A stretch of 46,767 bases of DNA from positions 266,401-313,167 of the forward strand of contig CAYYDR010000002.1 of assembly GCA_964470695.1 (NCBI GenBank), in the 5' to 3' direction. Every line of letters starts with the position of its first letter. Position 1 is the stretch's first letter. Source of the DNA: an uncultured Gammaproteobacteria bacterium (lineage in GTDB: Bacteria > Patescibacteriota > Patescibacteriia > Patescibacteriales > UBA12465). The position numbers and the translations under genes are program-made. A model generated the notes under the pieces. The model was not told the origin of the DNA, ran no database searches, and was given only the letters and a program-made list of their open reading frames with translations. Of this stretch, positions 1,199-8,623 are shown piece after piece.

Positions 1199-2404
1199 AT
1201 GATTGAAAATAGCATCGTCTATAGAGACTTCAAGGGAAAGTATGAATATCTCCCGCTCGCCAGAGCTGAAGGAGCTTTACTCTGGGATAGAGACGGGAAG
1301 AGATATATTGATTTTTCCTCAGCTTGGAATGTAACTAATTTAGGCTGGAATCATCCGGAAGTGAGCGAAGCGATAATTGAGCAGACCAAGAAAAATGTTC
1401 AAGGCCTTCTTTGGGGTTCTGACCCAATTCAAGAAGAATATGCTAAAGCGCTTACTGAGGCATTGCCTAAAGAAATGGACGCCTGTATTAAAGAAACAAG
1501 CGGTACCGAGTCGGTAGAGGCGGCGGTTAAAGTCGCCCGTGTCTATACGGGCAGAACTAAAATTATTGGCTTTAGCGCTCATTATCACGGACAGCTGTTT
1601 GCTACTTTAGCTATTGGATATCCAAAAAATTCCCATCACAAACTAGAACCTTTAGTGCCGGAAATTGCTCCGATTGCTTTTCCTCATAATAAAATTAGCG
1701 AGGCGGATTGGCAGAAATTTATCTCAGATTTTGAAGAAGCTCTTTCTAAAAAAGATATTGCTGCGGTTGTTACAGAGCCGGGAATAATTACTGGCTGGGG
1801 CTCAACGCTTATCGCTTATCCTGGATTTCTTTCTAAGCTTAGAGAACTTACTGCAAAATATGGAACCTTGCTTATTGTTGACGAAGTCGGAACAGGATTT
1901 TCCCGAACCGGAAAACTTTTTGGAATACAGCACGAAAATGTTGTTCCCGATATGATGGCTTTAGCCAAGGGAATATCTAACGGCGCCTCGGCTATTGGGG
2001 CCGTTGTCGGAAAATCGGCAATATTTGAGAAAGCCTTTTCAGAATCAATTTTAGTATCAACCTTTGGCTGGACGCCAATTGCCTGTGCCGCCTCTCTCAA
2101 AGTTTTACAAATTCATTTAAGAGATAAGACTTGGGAGATGGCTGAGAAGAAGGGAAATTATATAAAGGAAAAATTACAGCCACATATTGGAAAAATTTTA
2201 ATTGATGTACAGGGGTTAGGTATGGAAATTGGCGCGCAATTTAAAGACGCTGAGACTTGCTCAAGAGTACAAAAAGCCTGTTTTGCTGACGGACTCCACG
2301 TGGTTGTGGGTAGCGGAAATAATATGCAAATTATGCCGCCCCTAACCATTTCGCAAGAGCTTTTAGATGAAGGGCTGGATATTTTAATAAAAAATTTGGA
2401 ATAA
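1199..2404 (+). CDS. class III pyridoxal-phosphate aminotransferase (acetylornithine/GABA aminotransferase family)
   Basis: ETSGTESVEAAVKVAR, LLIVDEVGTGFSRTGKLFG and MALAKGISNG (PLP lysine region) are typical class III blocks. 401 aa. Confidence 0.85.
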   Translation: MIENSIVYRDFKGKYEYLPLARAEGALLWDRDGKRYIDFSSAWNVTNLGWNHPEVSEAIIEQTKKNVQGLLWGSDPIQEEYAKALTEALPKEMDACIKETSGTESVEAAVKVARVYTGRTKIIGFSAHYHGQLFATLAIGYPKNSHHKLEPLVPEIAPIAFPHNKISEADWQKFISDFEEALSKKDIAAVVTEPGIITGWGSTLIAYPGFLSKLRELTAKYGTLLIVDEVGTGFSRTGKLFGIQHENVVPDMMALAKGISNGASAIGAVVGKSAIFEKAFSESILVSTFGWTPIACAASLKVLQIHLRDKTWEMAEKKGNYIKEKLQPHIGKILIDVQGLGMEIGAQFKDAETCSRVQKACFADGLHVVVGSGNNMQIMPPLTISQELLDEGLDILIKNLE

Positions 2405-2449
2405 TTAGTGCCAATTATTATAAAGACATAAACTCATTATCATCAATTT

Positions 2450-3142
2450 ATGAACTTAGAAAAATTTACTAAATTTTTAAAGACAGTTAACCTGCGCGCC
2501 TATAGAGACAAATTCCGGCCGATTAAAATTGTAGAAATGGATCTGCCTAAAAATATTCAGGCAATCTCCCTACTTTATAAAATGTATTGGGACAGAAAGA
2601 AGTTTGTTAATTATGACGCATTTTATCAAGCCTACCTATCAGAATTAAAAACAGATTTAGAAAATTTTAGGAAGAAAATTCAGATGTGCAAGAAATGCTT
2701 TTATTTAGGCCTGCCGGCTAGAATTTATAGAACTTGGGCCAGTATTATAACCCAAATTCATGCCGGTTATGTGGCTGAGTCTGTTTTTGGCGCTGGCAGC
2801 GTTGAAATGTCAGAAGAACTTGACCATCAAGGAGCTGATTTTAGGGTAACTTACAAGAAGAATAAATTAAATTACCAGGTTAAAAAGGAAACTTTCAGTC
2901 GGGAAGTCAGAAAACAAAAAGAAGCCAAGATAAAACTTGATGGAGAATTTGTTGATATTCTTTATAAGGTTCCTAGTAATGATATTTTTGAAAACCCTAG
3001 GACCAAAAAAGGCGAACTAAGAAAGCCTTATAAGGAATTTATTAAAAATAAAAATTTAGAGAGATTTTCTAACGGCTTTATCGTTTTTACTCCTAAAATT
3101 TTTCAAGAAAAGAAAAAGCAGCTCAATTCTAAATTAAAATAA
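2450..3142 (+). CDS. putative type II restriction endonuclease (possibly TaqI family, TCGA)
   Basis: Converges on the methyltransferase gene with a 9-nt 3' overlap. D130-x12-QVK (GADFRVTYKKNKLNYQVKKE) is a plausible PD-(D/E)xK core. From memory only, the blocks RPIKIVEMDLP, LPARIYRTWASIITQ and NGFIVF recall R.TaqI. TCGA is almost absent from the window. Confidence 0.5.
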   Translation: MNLEKFTKFLKTVNLRAYRDKFRPIKIVEMDLPKNIQAISLLYKMYWDRKKFVNYDAFYQAYLSELKTDLENFRKKIQMCKKCFYLGLPARIYRTWASIITQIHAGYVAESVFGAGSVEMSEELDHQGADFRVTYKKNKLNYQVKKETFSREVRKQKEAKIKLDGEFVDILYKVPSNDIFENPRTKKGELRKPYKEFIKNKNLERFSNGFIVFTPKIFQEKKKQLNSKLK

Positions 3143-4660
3143 CTTAGGCGCGATCTTCACTGAGGCAATTACTTTTTCCGCCATTTTTACGTAATCAGGA
3201 TTAATTTCAAACCCTATATAATTTTGACCTAGCTCTTTGGCGGCGGCGCATTCAGACCCGCTGCCAACAAAAGGGACTAGGACAACGCCATTTTCCTTGG
3301 GCCTAGTTGATTTGATTAATTTTCGGCATAGTTCTAGAGGTTTTTGAGTGGGGTGTTTAACGATTTCGTGGTTAAGATGTTTTTTAAGCTCTCGGGGAGC
3401 GAAGATATCGTTGCCACAGGTTTTGCACATAAACCATCTTTCATTCATGCCCGCCCCGCCAGCTAAAGCTGGTATTTTTATTACATCGCGAGGCAAGGCT
3501 CCGCCTTCGTGAGCTTTATAAATAGTTTCCTGGCCGTTTTTGCTAAATCGGCCGACTGTCCCTCGGCGAACCTTTCCCGCCGCGCCGCTTAAAAATCCTT
3601 CCGTGTAGGGCTCTCTTACTTCATCGCGATTAAAATTAGGTGAATTTTTCCAGGCGCAAATTATTGCTTCGTGGCTCCTTTGCCAAAAATTTAACGAAGC
3701 CACGTTTTTATTGGTATAATGCCAGATAAGCCAGCGTTTGTTAATTGGTATTTCAACTGAGAGGTGTGCTAGAATTTCGCTGAACCCGTAAATAAATAAA
3801 GTGCCGTTTGGTTTTAAAATTCTGATTGATTCATCTATCCATTTTTTTGACCAGTTTACATATTCATTCATCTCTCTTTTATCAATATTATTTCCGAAGT
3901 CTTTGCCGATATTATAAGGCGGATCAATAATAATAATGTGGCAGCTCTCACTTGGCAATTTCCTTAATTCTTCTACGGCATCGTTAAGAATAATTTTATT
4001 TAAAGGCAGTTTCTTATTTCTTCTGATATTTTTTGACGTAATCAAATCATCCAAACGATCACTAGTTTTATTTTTAATTACATCAACTACGATGCCCTGA
4101 ACGGTTATCGGGATATTTTTAGGGATTATTATGGGCTTTAACAATTTATTAGCTGGTTGTAATCTGACGTGATTTTTTTCTTTATAGATTTTTTTTAAAG
4201 TAGTTTCGTAATTATTAATTAGGACGACGGCTTTGTCACCATTTTCCGCGGTCTCCTGCTGTCTAATTAACACAATATCGCCATCGCCTATATTTTCCTC
4301 AATCATACTATCACCAACTACTCTTAGAGCGTAAAAGGTTCCATTGTCCGGAAGTTTGCTTTGGGGAATAGCTATTATTTCTTTCTCTTTTACAGCTTCA
4401 AGCGGCTGGCCGGCGGTTATGTTCCCCAGAAGATTAATATTAACCATTTTTTCTCTTTCAAATACGGAAATAGCTCTGGGCTGATTGTCGTCTTTTCTTA
4501 GAAAGCCTTTCTTCTGTAGGTTTTTAATATGAAAATGGGCAGTAGAAACAGAAGCGGCCTTAAAATGTCGCTTTATTTCTTCAAGAGACGGCGAATAGTT
4601 ATGTTTAGAGAAGTATTGTTTTATAAAATCTAGAACTTCTGCCTGCTTTTTAGTTATCAT
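3134..4660 (-). CDS. LexA repressor (DNA-binding + S24 autopeptidase) fused to beta-class N6/N4 DNA methyltransferase
   Basis: aa 1-68 form a LexA-type winged helix (SLEEIKRHF..STAHFHIKNLQKKGFL). Cleavage-site region GNITAGQP (Ala83-Gly84), VVGDSM (Ser118) and TLKKI (Lys156). Then IIIDPPYN (aa 243-250), KHPTQKP and VPFVGSGS..YIGFEINPDY (motif I after motif IV, i.e. beta class). LexA module is about 4076..4660 and the MTase module about 3137..3985. Confidence 0.85.
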   Translation of the reverse strand: MITKKQAEVLDFIKQYFSKHNYSPSLEEIKRHFKAASVSTAHFHIKNLQKKGFLRKDDNQPRAISVFEREKMVNINLLGNITAGQPLEAVKEKEIIAIPQSKLPDNGTFYALRVVGDSMIEENIGDGDIVLIRQQETAENGDKAVVLINNYETTLKKIYKEKNHVRLQPANKLLKPIIIPKNIPITVQGIVVDVIKNKTSDRLDDLITSKNIRRNKKLPLNKIILNDAVEELRKLPSESCHIIIIDPPYNIGKDFGNNIDKREMNEYVNWSKKWIDESIRILKPNGTLFIYGFSEILAHLSVEIPINKRWLIWHYTNKNVASLNFWQRSHEAIICAWKNSPNFNRDEVREPYTEGFLSGAAGKVRRGTVGRFSKNGQETIYKAHEGGALPRDVIKIPALAGGAGMNERWFMCKTCGNDIFAPRELKKHLNHEIVKHPTQKPLELCRKLIKSTRPKENGVVLVPFVGSGSECAAAKELGQNYIGFEINPDYVKMAEKVIASVKIAPKLF

Positions 4661-4691
4661 GTCGCTAATATTTTAGTTTAATTATACGGCT

Positions 4692-4705
4692 CTATAATAT
4701 TATAG
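4692..4705. promoter_or_regulatory. perfect 14-bp palindrome CTATAATATTATAG, candidate operator
   Basis: Self-complementary. It lies 32-45 nt upstream of the LexA-MTase start codon and overlaps that gene's -10 hexamer. Confidence 0.5.
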
Positions 4706-4727
4706 AAAATAAATAGAAAATGAGCAA
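4699..4727 (-). promoter_or_regulatory. candidate promoter of the LexA-MTase gene (TTGCTC-N17-TATAAT)
   Basis: Reverse complement of 4722..4727 is TTGCTC and of 4699..4704 is TATAAT, with a 17-nt spacer. Confidence 0.45.
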
Positions 4728-4753
4728 GCTCGGTTTTTCTATTGTTTTTAGTG

Positions 4754-4762
4754 TGTTATAAT
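4754..4762 (+). promoter_or_regulatory. extended -10 TGtTATAAT, 8 nt before ATG 4771
   Basis: Exact TGnTATAAT match. No SD lies between it and the start codon. Confidence 0.5.
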
Positions 4763-4770
4763 TGATTTAT

Positions 4771-5700
4771 ATGAAGCCAGTTTTAGTAACCTGCTATGTT
4801 AATCCCGACTTAGACGGTTTCGCGAGTGCCGTCGCTTACGCCGAATTTTTAAATAGCCAGGGCCGCCCGGCTCAGGTAGGGATATTAGGTGTGCCTCATG
4901 ACGAAGTAAAATATGTCTTAGATAGATTTAAGCTCATAAATCCTAAAGAAATATCTAGTGCCGCCGACTTTACGGAAGTGATTTTAGTTGATGCTAGTGA
5001 TTTAAACGGCTTAGAGGGCAGAATAGAGCCGGACAAGGTTGTAGAAATTATTGACCATCGGAAAGTTAATGAGGCCGAGAAGTTCCCTAACGCTAAGGCC
5101 CAAATAGAAATGGTTGGGGCGGCGGCGACTCTTATTGCTGAAAAATTCAAACAGGCCGACACTCGTATTTCTAATGAATCAGCAATTTTAATTTATAGCG
5201 CTATTATTTCTAATACTTTGAATTTTAAGGGCAGCGTGACTACTAGTCGGGACAAAAATATCGCGTCGTGGCTGGAGCAGTTTATTGAAGTGCCGCCGGA
5301 ATACTGGAAAGAACTTTTTACGGCGAAATCTGATTTAACGGGTGACAAATTAGCCAAGCGGATTCAAGGTGATTTTGCCTGGTTTGTTTTAGGCGGTCAG
5401 AAGGTCGGAATTGCTCAGTTGGAAATAATTGGTGCCGCCGCTCTTATTAGGGAGCGGGGAAAAGAAATAATTACTATTTTAAATAAGATTAAGGCTGAAT
5501 TAAACTTAGATTGCATTTTCCAAAATACTATTGATTTGGAAAAATTAAATAATTTTATTGTCACTAACGACGATTTAGCTAAAAATATTTTGGAAAACGC
5601 TCTAGGCATAAAATTTTCTGGCACAGTAGCAATAAAAGACCAGCTAATTATGCGCAAGCAAATAGTGCCTTTAATTAAAGAGGAACTAGAAAATTTATAG
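4771..5700 (+). CDS. DHH/DHHA2 phosphoesterase, family II inorganic pyrophosphatase-like
   Basis: NPDLDGFASAVAYAEFL, ILVDASD, IIDHRK and C-terminal LIMRKQIVP (DHHA2-like), at about 309 aa. The second metal motif is partly degenerate (DAS, DHR). ATG 4771 is preferred over the track's TTG 4762. Confidence 0.6.
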   Translation: MKPVLVTCYVNPDLDGFASAVAYAEFLNSQGRPAQVGILGVPHDEVKYVLDRFKLINPKEISSAADFTEVILVDASDLNGLEGRIEPDKVVEIIDHRKVNEAEKFPNAKAQIEMVGAAATLIAEKFKQADTRISNESAILIYSAIISNTLNFKGSVTTSRDKNIASWLEQFIEVPPEYWKELFTAKSDLTGDKLAKRIQGDFAWFVLGGQKVGIAQLEIIGAAALIRERGKEIITILNKIKAELNLDCIFQNTIDLEKLNNFIVTNDDLAKNILENALGIKFSGTVAIKDQLIMRKQIVPLIKEELENL

Positions 5701-5724
5701 CTCATTATTAGTCGGCTGGCGGCT

Positions 5725-5753
5725 GTGACAATTTAGCCATAATATGTTATTAT
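5725..5753 (+). promoter_or_regulatory. candidate promoter GTGACA-N17-TATTAT with TG extension
   Basis: -35-like at 5725..5730 and -10 at 5748..5753, preceded by TGt. Upstream of the secreted coiled-coil gene. Confidence 0.45.
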
Positions 5754-5810: not shown

Positions 5811-7025
5811 ATGTCTAAAAAATTATTTAATTATTCAGTCTTAGTAATTATTTTAGGCCTAGCTTTAGTCCATGCGGCTCAAGCCGAGCCTTACGGTCCT
5901 CCGGCTGGCCTTCCGGCAGGCATGCCTGATTTATCTCAGATTATGAACAACATCCCTGGCGGCATCCCGGGTGGTATGCCGGCTGGCGTCCCGACTAATA
6001 TGGGCCCAAGTGCGGAGCAGAGCGCTAAATTTGAGGAAATGCAGAAGAAGGGCGAAGAGATGCAGCGGGAAGCGGAAAAGAAAGGTGAAGAAATGCAGAA
6101 AAAAGGTGAAGAAAAACAAAGAGAGGCTGAGAAAAAAGCTTTTGAAAAAATGAGTAAAAATATTAACCAATTTGAAAGAGCGGTTAAGATTATTAAAACT
6201 CAAGTGGAAAAATTAAATAAGAAAGGCGCCCCCACTACTCCGGACATGAAAATTGAGCTAGATAAGCTTGATGCTTTCTTAGCTAAATTAAAATCATCTA
6301 CCACTATTGAGCAGTTACAGCCTTTATTTGAAGAGTTTTCTGACTTAATTGATAGTGCTCAAGAACAGCTGCAGATTATGTCCAAGGCCTCCAAATGGCC
6401 GTCCGTGGAAAAACAGGCGGGTAATTTAATAGCTAAATTAACTAAAGAATCAACCACCTTGAAAGCTAAGGCCGCTAAAAAAGATTTAACGGAAGAACTA
6501 GCCGAAAGCTTTACTGAATTAGATAAGGCTATTGCTGAGCAGAAAGCAGCCCTGGAAACGTTAAAGACTCAGGTTAAAACTGATCCTGATACGGTCTTTG
6601 ATAATATCGGCGATTACTTTGATAAGTTTAGAGACATTTATGAAAATAATGTCAGAGAGATTAATTCAACTCTAGATTTGAAAAAGGCTGTTAAAACCGA
6701 ATTGCCTAAGTTTGTTAAAGCCTTGGATAACCGGGTAAAGACCTTAGCTCGTAATAAAAAAATTAATACGACTGAGCTGAAGGCCTTAGTTGCTAGCGCT
6801 AATACTAAATTGAATGAGATTAAAACTTTGGTAGCGGCAAAAACTGTTGATCATGACGCGGTTATTAGTGCGATTGACGCTTTGACGGATATCAGTGTTC
6901 AGTTTGAGGATAAGTGGGAAGCTTTGACCGGCCAGGATAACAATAATTTAATGCCCAAACTGCCCGATACCCCGGCTGACTATAAAATAAATATTCCGGC
7001 CAGCTTAAATAGTCTGATTAAATAG
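5811..7025 (+). CDS. secreted coiled-coil protein, unknown function
   Basis: Signal peptide MSKKLFNYSVLVIILGLALVHAAQA. A Pro/Gly-rich stretch (GPPAGLPAGMPD..IPGGIPGGMPAGVP), KKGEEMQ(R/K)EAEKK repeats, then a long heptad-like Lys/Glu/Leu-rich region. Confidence 0.6.
   Translation: MSKKLFNYSVLVIILGLALVHAAQAEPYGPPAGLPAGMPDLSQIMNNIPGGIPGGMPAGVPTNMGPSAEQSAKFEEMQKKGEEMQREAEKKGEEMQKKGEEKQREAEKKAFEKMSKNINQFERAVKIIKTQVEKLNKKGAPTTPDMKIELDKLDAFLAKLKSSTTIEQLQPLFEEFSDLIDSAQEQLQIMSKASKWPSVEKQAGNLIAKLTKESTTLKAKAAKKDLTEELAESFTELDKAIAEQKAALETLKTQVKTDPDTVFDNIGDYFDKFRDIYENNVREINSTLDLKKAVKTELPKFVKALDNRVKTLARNKKINTTELKALVASANTKLNEIKTLVAAKTVDHDAVISAIDALTDISVQFEDKWEALTGQDNNNLMPKLPDTPADYKINIPASLNSLIK
6034..6138 (+). 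repeat. imperfect in-frame tandem repeats encoding (E)EMQKKGEE / REAEKK units
   Basis: Protein reads EEMQKKGEEMQREAEKKGEEMQKKGEEKQREAEKKAFEK. The DNA is purine-rich and self-similar. Confidence 0.6.
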
Positions 7026-7421
7026 TTATTTTGCTAGGAGATTTAATAAATCTCTAAAAATGGCGTAGGCGATAGCTAAAAATGAAAAGAGGAAAATAGC
7101 AATATAATTCCATTTAGCTAGGCTAGTGCTTAGACCCTTAAGTATATAGACAAGAGCCTGTTCATCTTTTTGGTTAAGTGGTTTTCTTGATTCTATTTTA
7201 GAAATTAAGTCTAGTTCTTCAATGAGCCGGTCGCGCTTATTTTCCACGTGCCAGCGATGGCCGAAATACCAGATAAAACCGATGGTCCCGATATACCAGG
7301 ATACCTCTAGCCAGAAAGAACTATAGTGGCTTAGAACTATCACTAGCCGGTAGGAGATAGTCGCGATTATTCCGACCAAGAATATCCAGGCGCGATATAG
7401 AGAGTTGTTTAATTTAGGCAT
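7026..7421 (-). CDS. membrane protein, unknown function
   Basis: 131 aa with two N-terminal TM helices and one C-terminal TM helix around a charged loop. Its stop abuts the stop of the convergent gene at 7025. Confidence 0.5.
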   Translation of the reverse strand: MPKLNNSLYRAWIFLVGIIATISYRLVIVLSHYSSFWLEVSWYIGTIGFIWYFGHRWHVENKRDRLIEELDLISKIESRKPLNQKDEQALVYILKGLSTSLAKWNYIAIFLFSFLAIAYAIFRDLLNLLAK

Positions 7422-7452
7422 ATTTTAATTATTAGATTTTGTTAGTTTTTAT

Positions 7453-7461
7453 AGTATAGCA
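7453..7461 (-). promoter_or_regulatory. extended -10 TGcTATACT for the gene starting at 7421
   Basis: Reverse complement of AGTATAGCA, about 31 nt upstream of the start codon. Confidence 0.35.
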
Positions 7462-7468
7462 TATAACT

Positions 7469-7681
7469 ATGGAAATACTCGTCATCGCTTTGATTATTGG
7501 TTTTGTCGGTTATGTCTCAGTTAGAGAAGGAAAGAGTATAGATTTTACGCCTCGCATCAATAAGCGCCATTTTCCTCGGGCCGCCTATCTTAAAAGTGTT
7601 CGGGAAGATACGGAAATTAAGAGCCAGACTAGCAAGTTAATTGCGGCCGATAAAGAACGCGTCAAGAAAAAACTGCTTTAA
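7469..7681 (+). CDS. small protein with N-terminal TM helix, hypothetical
   Basis: 70-aa ORF (MEILVIALIIGFVGYV...). No recognisable motif. Coding status is uncertain. Confidence 0.3.
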   Translation: MEILVIALIIGFVGYVSVREGKSIDFTPRINKRHFPRAAYLKSVREDTEIKSQTSKLIAADKERVKKKLL

Positions 7682-7688
7682 TTATTAT

Positions 7689-8192
7689 ATGGCTAAATTA
7701 TCTATTCGTTATCCAGTCCTTTCCGATGCTAAGCCTTTTATAGAAATAATAACTAATCCTAATTTTCGGTATTTGCATCTTCCGGCTAAGACAGTAAAAG
7801 CGGAAGAAAAATGGCTGCGCGGCTTGCCCCAGAAAAGAAAATTGAATCAGGAATGGAATTACGCTATTTTATATGGCGATAAATTAATCGGCGGCATCGG
7901 CCTTAAAATTAACCGTTTCCGACCCCATATTGCTGAGATCGGCTACTTTATTGCCGAACCATATTGGGGTAAAGGACTGGCTAGTCGGGCGGTAAAATTA
8001 ATTGAGAAGGAGGCTACTCAGAAATTAAAGCTGCACCGCTTAGAAATATTAATGCGCCCGGAAAATAGGGCGAGCGAAAAAGTGGCGATTAAGAATAATT
8101 ACCGGAAGGAAGGGAAACTCAGGAAGATGGAGAAAGATAGACAGGGAGTCTGGCGTGATTTTTGGCTTTATGCTAAGGTTTTGTCAGAATAA
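7689..8192 (+). CDS. GNAT family N-acetyltransferase (RimJ/RimL-like)
   Basis: IGYFIAEPYWGKGLASRAVKLIEKEA is an acetyl-CoA binding motif A-like block (Q/RxxGxG/A). ATG 7689 (MAKLSIRYP) is preferred over the track's TTG 7641, which overlaps the previous ORF. Confidence 0.75.
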   Translation: MAKLSIRYPVLSDAKPFIEIITNPNFRYLHLPAKTVKAEEKWLRGLPQKRKLNQEWNYAILYGDKLIGGIGLKINRFRPHIAEIGYFIAEPYWGKGLASRAVKLIEKEATQKLKLHRLEILMRPENRASEKVAIKNNYRKEGKLRKMEKDRQGVWRDFWLYAKVLSE

Positions 8193-8209
8193 GCCAATAT
8201 AAAAAAATT

Positions 8210-8623
8210 ATGGATTACAGAAAACTCAGTACTAAGCGTTTTTGGGGGCATGCCTTATCCTTTTTGTTTATTTGGATGCCAATATTCCCGGTTTTGCTTT
8301 TAGATCTCTGCGTTGAAGTTTACCAGCAAATTTGTTTCCCGATTTATGGCTTGGAAATGGTTAAGCGTTCAGCTTATATTCAGATTCGCGATCGCGCTAA
8401 ACTCCAGTATTTGAATGGTTTAGAAAAGATTAATTGTATGTACTGCGGTTATGTTAACGGCGTTCTTCTTTATTGGAAAGAAGTGGCTGGTCGGACAGAA
8501 AAATATTGGTGTGGCATTATGCATGCCCAGAAGCCTGGTTTTCAGACTCATCAGGATCAGGTCGTAAAGGAGTATGCCCGTTATGGCGATGAGAAGGATT
8601 TTCATAATAAATTTGACGCTTAA
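8210..8623 (+). CDS. hypothetical membrane-anchored protein with Cys/His cluster
   Basis: 137 aa, one hydrophobic N-terminal segment, CMYCGYVNG...YWCGIMH. Confidence 0.45.
   Translation: MDYRKLSTKRFWGHALSFLFIWMPIFPVLLLDLCVEVYQQICFPIYGLEMVKRSAYIQIRDRAKLQYLNGLEKINCMYCGYVNGVLLYWKEVAGRTEKYWCGIMHAQKPGFQTHQDQVVKEYARYGDEKDFHNKFDA

Follow-up and report, generated by a model that had tools for sequence, protein, structure and literature searches.

A 46.7-kb stretch of DNA from a Patescibacteria (candidate phyla radiation, CPR) bacterium (contig CAYYDR010000002.1; hereafter the window) contains a restriction-modification (R-M) cassette in which a complete LexA repressor and a DNA methyltransferase are joined in a single open reading frame (ORF), next to a convergent gene for a TaqI-family restriction endonuclease. 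On balance we favor a scheme in which the methylase gene (M) is autorepressed through its LexA half and derepressed by RecA-stimulated self-cleavage, so that the balance between the endonuclease (R) and M would shift toward protection after DNA breaks. There is strong comparative evidence for the predicted first step, in which the fusion LexA binds a direct repeat in its own promoter and represses its own gene. The proposed coupling to DNA damage is based on the cleavage site and the Ser/Lys dyad, both of which are absolutely conserved, and we infer the direction of the effect, toward protection, favoring derepression over a loss of M.

The LexA-methylase fusion and its convergent endonuclease

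The coding part of the cassette comprises the following features (positions within the window):

3134..4660, minus strand: LexA-M gene, a single 508-aa ORF with LexA (winged helix-turn-helix and S24 domain), linker and beta-class N6-adenine-type DNA methyltransferase
4472..4657, minus strand: LexA winged-helix DNA-binding domain, aa 2-63 (PF01726 LexA_DNA_bind, 59 bits)
4409..4414, minus strand: codons of the predicted self-cleavage bond Ala83-Gly84, aligning with A84-G85 of E. coli LexA
4085..4432, minus strand: S24 peptidase/LexA C-terminal dimerization domain, aa 77-192 (PF00717 Peptidase_S24, 87 bits)
4307..4309 and 4193..4195, minus strand: codons of Ser118 and Lys156, aligned to S119 and K156 of E. 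coli LexA
3986..4072, minus strand: basic variable linker, aa 197-225, joining LexA to the methylase
3137..3985, minus strand: beta-class DNA methyltransferase domain, aa 226-508 (PF01555 N6_N4_Mtase, 131 bits, aa 241-496)
3914..3925, minus strand: methylase motif IV, DPPY, aa 246-249
3257..3271, minus strand: methylase motif I, FVGSG, aa 464-468
3368..3427, minus strand: Cys412/Cys415/His428/His431 insert in the methylase, between motif IV and motif I
2450..3142, plus strand: R gene, TaqI-family type II restriction endonuclease, 230 aa (PF09573 RE_TaqI, 121 bits, E 7e-35)

A sequence-only reading of this DNA had placed a LexA-type winged helix at the N-terminus of the fusion, and profile searches agreed. 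In addition to the two Pfam domains, aa 2-197 scored 168 bits against TIGR00498, the lexA equivalog model of NCBIfam (cutoff 111), and in a search of the PDB sequences residues 2-193 matched the LexA of T. maritima (3k2z) over its full length (E 5e-32). Alignment to E. coli LexA confirmed that Ala83-Gly84, Ser118 and Lys156 occupy the LexA positions, and the basic linker of about 30 aa, read as free of stop codons, was found as described at aa 197-225. The methyltransferase was likewise correctly assigned to the N6/N4 type and the beta class, as follows from the PF01555 match and from the motif order, with DPPY ahead of FVGSG. PDB relatives of this half are M.MboIIA, M.RsrI and CcrM, and it was matched by the PADLOC model MTase_II with 165 bits. 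In an AlphaFold (AF2) model based on a 23-sequence alignment the LexA half was confident (predicted local distance difference test, pLDDT, 70-88; winged helix 80-87), the linker at about aa 197-226 was disordered (pLDDT below 50, about 30), and the target-recognition region of the methylase was poorly modelled (mean pLDDT 62.6). The Cys-x2-Cys...His-x2-His quartet at aa 412-431 is invariant and is shared with an unfused homologue at another locus (L173); possibly it forms a zinc site inserted into the target-recognition region.

Relatives of the fusion were searched in a set of 5.8 billion proteins and in a locus scan with one genome per species (185,579 species genomes), whose best 80 loci were numbered L001-L080. 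At least 120 protein clusters contained the continuous fusion, with 68-85% identity, a length of about 505-510 aa and the same three domains; where named, these clusters belonged to Patescibacteria/CPR lineages. The locus scan found relatives in 294 species genomes, and the best 80 loci all had a full-length fusion. Since several data sources contributed independent clusters with the same continuous ORF, and 80 species genomes contain it as well, it is extremely improbable that an assembly error or frameshift joined a lexA to an M gene, an exclusion made by comparison and not by reads. The fusion is therefore not the singular oddity it had been taken for; it is one member of a large modular Patescibacteria family. 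The fusion gene of one sister locus (L060:2440-3957) has an in-frame stop after codon 38, and the remainder of the gene and the adjacent R look intact; this may reflect a pseudogene, a sequencing error or a restart.

Conservation differed strongly along the protein. In all 78 full-length copies A83, G84, S118 and K156 were invariant, as were DPPY, F464/G466/G468 and Cys412/Cys415/His428/His431, and the S24 module is thus predicted to be catalytically intact, as had been supposed. Mean pairwise identity among these copies was highest in the methylase (80%), followed by the S24 core (69%), the hinge (64%) and the winged helix (54%), and lowest in the linker (50%), the position of which is nevertheless kept in all recurring fusions. 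Invariant cleavage residues next to a diverging DNA-reading part show that selection maintains the self-cleavage machinery and leaves the DNA reader free to change.

The convergent ORF had been proposed as a candidate PD-(D/E)xK nuclease on the basis of the motif GADF...YQVKKE. The RE_TaqI match bears this out, and the motif corresponds to the invariant G128-x-D130...Y142-Q-V-K145-K146; in 59 homologues the invariant core consists of D125, G128-x-D130, N141 and Y142-Q-V-K145-K146. The PADLOC model REase_II matched R with 110 bits, and a search of R against the PDB sequences returned no match to a solved structure. With an adjacent, convergent and cognate pair of MTase_II and REase_II, the cassette counts as a type II R-M system. 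The 9-nt overlap of the two 3' ends that had been noted is real (3134..3142) and recurs in 46 of 58 related loci. About 65 of the 80 related loci have R next to the fusion gene in convergent orientation; the TaqI-family gene is intact in 59 loci (window counted), frameshifted in three and present as a remnant only in another three. No conserved terminator was found at the R/M junction, where a consensus scan gave nothing convincing.

Eleven loci appeared to carry "orphan" fusions without R, a description that did not hold, as in 10 of them the R slot is taken by a convergent ORF from a different family. One such family (L019:7506-8120(-), L040, L059, L063, L065 and L077) has a PD-ExK-like motif, GFD-x12-EVKQ, and another is found in L008:6820-7566(-), L045, L072 and L075. 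Both families (200-270 aa, mutually unrelated) were without a Pfam or PADLOC match, and they are candidate new restriction endonucleases, possibly isoschizomers cutting at TCGA.

In 27 of the 80 sister loci a C gene (72-73 aa, HTH_3, 55-57 bits) stands directly upstream of R and is preceded by C-box-like palindromes. TaqI-family genes also accompany methylases that are homologous to the M half (56-60% identity) but unfused. One such methylase, at L173, belongs to a cassette with the layout M -> <- R <- C without LexA, and it starts at fusion residue 218.

The target of the R-M pair is very probably TCGA, given the TaqI-family partner in fused and unfused cassettes and the depletion of this tetranucleotide. 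In the window 4 TCGA sites were counted, while 93 are expected from a second-order Markov model (observed/expected, O/E, 0.04) and dinucleotide shuffles gave 158 +/- 11. Among the 16 four-base palindromes TCGA is the most depleted, both in the window and in the pooled loci (pooled O/E about 0.45). ACGT (O/E 0.42) and GATC (0.62) are also under-represented in the window, which hints at past or present pressure from other restriction systems. The DPPY motif is typical of N6-adenine methylases, and N6-methyladenine within TCGA is accordingly the likely modification.

Operator, recognition helix and related LexA modules

The promoter of M holds a direct repeat in the spacer between its candidate -35 and -10 elements:

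4722..4727, minus strand: candidate -35 TTGCTC of the M promoter, read from the sequence, with a 17-nt spacer to TATAAT
4702..4719, minus strand: putative operator, direct repeat TTTCTAT-N4-TTTCTAT with period 11, in the M promoter spacer
4699..4704, minus strand: candidate -10 TATAAT of the M promoter, overlapping the 3' end of the second operator repeat
4691..4706, minus strand: perfect 16-bp palindrome TCTATAATATTATAGA, overlapping the -10
2376..2405, plus strand: weak promoter-like match TGGATA-18-AATAAT upstream of R, from a consensus scan alone and of low confidence

In the sister loci the -10 is kept as TATAAT or TATACT, and the -35 position reads TTGACT or TGGACT. TTTCTAT-N4-TTTCTAT occurs as a single exact copy within the window. 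A period-11 repeat was present in 75 of 81 fusion promoters, and 42 of the 46 occurrences of TTTCTA-N5-TTTCTA in about 830 kb (loci and window together) were at fusion promoters. The half-sites change in concert between loci (TTTCTAT, TTTCGGT, TGCTCGG or TTTAGG). The recognition helix of the fusion LexA comprises about aa 37-50 (SVSTAHFHIKNL), and its residue 44 co-varies with the operator sequence across loci: TTCTA repeats (53 loci) pair with the helix SVST(A/I)H(F/Y)H, TTCGG repeats (12 loci) with (S/G)T(I/V)H(E/Q)H, and GCTCG repeats (4 loci) with SPSTTHEH. The pairing of E/Q with CGG recurs independently in a fusion with a Dam-class methylase, in one with a C5-class methylase and in a DpnI-linked LexA, which are described below. 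An operator in the own promoter that co-varies with the recognition helix indicates autorepression, and the earlier suggestion that the fusion regulates the M gene thereby gained strong comparative support. No direct repeat was found in the promoter of the unfused M at L173.

The palindrome TCTATAATATTATAGA was considered as a LexA box and set aside, since it is the direct repeat that is conserved and co-varies with the helix, while the palindrome is modestly enriched: inverted repeats of the type TATAC-N5-GTATA lie at the same place in sister promoters, with arms of at least 6 in 48% vs 19% of shuffles.

A further element, TGTGGATAA, the reverse complement of the DnaA-box consensus TTATCCACA, precedes the -35 by 1-15 nt in 58 of the 80 fusion promoters, which account for 58 of its 78 occurrences in 784 kb (e.g., in L012, about 90 nt before the ATG). 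Further copies stand at fusions of the C5, Dam and gamma classes and before the LexA-DpnI operon (L081:3924-3932, L084, L085 and L166). As this element stays constant while the LexA operator varies, a separate conserved factor probably binds it, possibly DnaA. The motif GTCAAG is conserved 8-12 nt before the fusion ATG in sister loci (L012, L036), at the position of a ribosome-binding site, and is absent from the window. The opposite strand shows TTGAC here, at a distance of 17-18 nt from a TATAAT overlapping the forward -10, and the element may be a divergent promoter under the same operator.

A search for divergent relatives was performed in a library clustered at 50% identity, and the top 150 matches were considered. 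Among these, 43 were LexA proteins with a C-terminal extension of at least 180 aa, and all 20 extensions that were scanned proved to be DNA methyltransferases, of the beta (N6_N4), alpha (Dam/D12) and gamma (N6_Mtase/Eco57I with or without TaqI_C) classes and of the C5 type. Ala-Gly, Ser and Lys were kept in all 43 representatives, the recognition helices of which differ widely. Fusions of the C5, Dam and gamma types share the promoter grammar, and their 3' ends likewise face a convergent gene.

Two complete cassettes in tandem were found in L046, at 2943-5732 and 6001-8429. They consist of LexA-M, an MvaI-BcnI-family R and C, and of LexA-M, a TaqI-family R and C, respectively, and differ in operator (TTTCTAT vs TTTCGGT) and recognition helix, which suggests selection for orthogonality. 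A "stand-alone lexA" in this locus turned out to be the second LexA-methylase fusion (621 aa). The closest stand-alone LexA, 213 aa in length and 58% identical to the LexA half of the fusion (L166:1125-2551; L167:743-2169), heads an operon that also encodes a methyl-dependent restriction endonuclease of the DpnI family, and this operon is preceded by a direct repeat of TGTTCGGT (two copies) and by two TTATCCACA boxes. An ordinary LexA of 201 aa with 43% identity (L168:125-730; L169:393-998) has the promoter repeat TTTCACC-N4-TCTCACC, again with an 11-bp period, so that direct-repeat LexA operators may be general in this group. At L020:6001-9390 a triple fusion of 1129 aa joins LexA to a beta-class methylase and to a gamma-class M.TaqI-like methylase with TaqI_C; no convergent R is adjacent to it.

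Tentatively, and with slightly less than even confidence, we regard these proteins as uses of a portable Patescibacteria LexA cassette that would act as a private switch, responsive to RecA, in all kinds of restriction systems, with orthogonal operator/helix pairs that let several cassettes coexist in one genome. Its parts would be a promoter, an element resembling a DnaA box, a direct-repeat operator and a self-cleaving LexA whose recognition helix diversifies rapidly, either fused to beta, alpha, gamma or C5 methylases or standing alone before a DpnI nuclease. If this is true, it would be the first case of restriction alleviation in a type II system, or of restriction wired to the SOS response, and evolution would have furnished a set of orthogonal repressor/operator pairs that are inducible by damage. 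With its dozens of helix/operator pairs built on one LexA scaffold, the family lends itself to studies of direct-repeat recognition and to use as a source of orthogonal damage-inducible parts.

Proposed damage-triggered derepression and its alternatives

In the scheme that we favor, LexA-M would bind the repeat between the -35 and -10 of its own promoter and repress its own synthesis, and the methylase level would therefore be sensed and held by negative feedback. Since the S24 half keeps the cleavage site and the Ser-Lys dyad, RecA on single-stranded DNA would trigger self-cleavage at Ala83-Gly84; such filaments could form, for instance, when the cell's own endonuclease cuts unmethylated TCGA sites or when DNA is resynthesized in the course of repair. 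The cut would part the DNA-binding domain from the dimerizing S24-methylase body and free the operator, upon which M transcription would rise. As M and R lie tail to tail with a 9-nt overlap and no terminator, transcription of M would run antisense into R, and convergent transcription over the overlap could also lower R. The net outcome would be an R/M balance displaced toward protection, that is, a damage-triggered restriction alleviation for a type II system. Upon entry into a naive cell without repressor, a burst of M would be expected. Unbalanced type II R-M activity induces SOS (PMC3874152), which would close a feedback loop in which self-inflicted breaks raise the methylase.

Several observations weigh against this scheme. 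No LexA operator was found near the R and C-R promoters, where the best sites were at chance (median expected count 1.5), so that any effect on R would be indirect. With 4 TCGA sites in 46.7 kb, the present-day risk of self-cutting is small in this genome. Using E. coli RecA as a tblastn probe, no recA was found in the window or in the 80 loci, and the scheme presupposes one elsewhere in the genome. The window also lacks the TGTGGATAA box and a C gene, the gene upstream of R being an aminotransferase gene. Cleavage, DNA binding and the fate of the S24-methylase fragment are predicted functions. Furthermore, derepression of the LexA-DpnI operon would raise restriction, so that alleviation would not account for every use of the LexA module, and neither "defence up" nor "defence down" holds as a general rule.

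This operon is also one argument for an unlikely alternative, a damage-triggered loss of protection, as it shows that the switch can raise a nuclease on derepression ("defence up on alarm"). Here cleavage would expose degrons and the S24-methylase fragment would be destroyed while the stable endonuclease persists; incoming phage DNA would then be cut better, or the infected or damaged cell would kill itself. The invariant cleavage machinery is in line with such an outcome. In E. coli both LexA cleavage fragments become ClpXP or Lon substrates, and the new C-terminus that the family would have after cleavage (...IAA) resembles the E. coli ...VAA signal. However, cleavage would free the operator and thereby allow fresh synthesis of the fusion at the same time, and the cycle would be futile unless degradation is the faster process. 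All DNA damage would be potentially lethal, a heavy cost for a chromosomal cassette that hundreds of species have kept, and with almost no TCGA left to cut in the window's genome suicide would be inefficient.

Autorepression is the best-supported step of the favored scheme, and taken by itself it would also fit a regulatory fusion without physiological cleavage, in which LexA is a dimeric DNA-binding module for tight autorepression and for establishment in new hosts, and the S24 domain is kept for dimerization. The known self-regulating methylases need no cleavage (PMC3874152), and the unfused version of the cassette has a C protein alone. Nevertheless, we consider this reading improbable: Ala-Gly, Ser and Lys are dispensable for dimerization, yet they are invariant in 78 of 78 fusions and in 43 of 43 divergent representatives, with free divergence of the DNA-binding helix and of the linker. 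Where cleavage is not needed S24 domains commonly degenerate, but no degenerate copy was seen among the fusions examined.

Quite improbable is a role of the fusion as the master SOS repressor, controlling recA and repair genes, with a methylase that is epigenetic or linked to the cell cycle and not part of an R-M system. The N-terminal half passes the LexA equivalog model, the element resembling a DnaA box that most sister promoters carry hints at an input from the cell cycle, and, the second fusion of L046 apart, neither the window nor the 80 loci yielded another lexA in tblastn with the LexA half. Against this stand the confinement of the operator essentially to fusion promoters in about 830 kb of flanking DNA, the diversification of operators and helices with two differing cassettes coexisting in one locus, the varied contexts, often beside tRNA genes, the occurrence of relatives in merely 294 of 185,579 species genomes, and a convergent nuclease or nuclease candidate at nearly every locus with room for one. 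Neither further operator copies nor SOS genes were found in the window.

Comparison with known systems and genomic setting

R-M systems are toxic if R outruns M. Several methylases set this balance by themselves: in M.SsoII, M.Ecl18kI, M.EcoRII, M.MspI and M.ScrFIA an N-terminal DNA-binding part acts on the own promoter, and M.EcoRII, M.SsoII and M.ScrFI repress their own promoters (PMC3874152). The fusion resembles this SsoII/EcoRII type in function, by comparative inference, but it is not a homologous member. Those enzymes are C5 methylases with a short helix-turn-helix (HTH) arm, without a protease and without a known signal that removes the repressor, whereas the fusion, not a C5 methylase, carries a complete LexA with S24. 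With the E. coli and T. maritima LexA it shares full-length homology, the Ala-Gly bond, the Ser-Lys dyad and an operator in the own promoter. It differs from them in the attached 290-aa enzyme and in an operator that is a direct repeat with 11-bp period instead of a palindrome; nor was a repair regulon apparent in the window or across about 830 kb of flanking DNA, as would fit a private regulator of a mobile cassette.

A dedicated regulator that balances R and M is likewise found in the C-protein systems (C.PvuII, C.BamHI, C.AhdI and C.Esp1396I), where specificities also diversify and co-resident systems avoid cross-talk. C proteins are, however, XRE-type HTH activator/repressors of C-R transcription and not damage-responsive, while the fusion LexA would act on M. 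The fusion thus appears to be a variant of R-M regulation that would work in the SsoII/EcoRII manner and complement C-protein control, but with a complete, apparently cleavable LexA as its regulatory domain.

The proposed outcome is similar to type I restriction alleviation, in which HsdR is removed in a ClpXP-dependent manner after DNA damage; in both cases restriction would be damped when unmodified sites follow damage or repair. Type I alleviation is proteolysis of the restriction subunit, not a transcriptional response, and proceeds without LexA cleavage, and we know of no equivalent described for type II systems. Inactivation of a repressor at a defence locus by a DNA-damage-related signal is also known from CapH/CapP of the cyclic oligonucleotide-based antiphage signaling system (CBASS) and from the WYL-domain protein BrxR. 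In contrast to the fusion, these regulators (an HTH protein with a separate metallopeptidase, and a WYL protein) are separate proteins, and their derepression raises the defence effector. The C protein of sister loci gave a weak match to the capH model.

Natural LexA-methylase fusions were undescribed in the full-text literature search; Sanchez-Osuna et al. (2017; Environ Microbiol 19:3465), on the SOS network of Patescibacteria, could mention them. A methylase with its own RecA-sensitive repressor would give a direct, testable answer to the question of how DNA damage and repair synthesis are dealt with in type II systems. CPR bacteria largely lack CRISPR; if the proposed scheme is true, they have elaborated the regulation of restriction. 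As the fusion genes are automatically annotated either as "LexA repressor" or as "adenine-specific methyltransferase", SOS regulons and R-M inventories are mislabelled in CPR genomes.

The R-M cassette is chromosomal and belongs to a Patescibacteria bacterium. The window is ordinary chromosome, with genes for SecA, isoleucyl-tRNA synthetase (IleRS), MreB, the Pol III delta' subunit and RseP and with a polysaccharide cluster, and the cassette is located between an aminotransferase gene and a DHH-family gene. Within the window no tRNA genes were found. Sister cassettes lie in varied surroundings, and tRNA genes, often for tRNA-Ser, stand within 400 bp in about 20 loci (including L001, L005, L009, L010, L021, L023 and L048), consistent with an island-like insertion. 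A scan of IMG/VR found no LexA fusions on viral contigs, merely unfused methylase relatives (L086-L165); these have 50-60% identity over aa ~200-500, and many of their contigs are labelled GVMAG, for giant-virus MAGs. No convincing family match was obtained for a 404-aa ORF of the window (5811..7025, plus strand), which has a signal-peptide-like N-terminus and repetitive, coiled-coil-like EEMQKKGEE segments.

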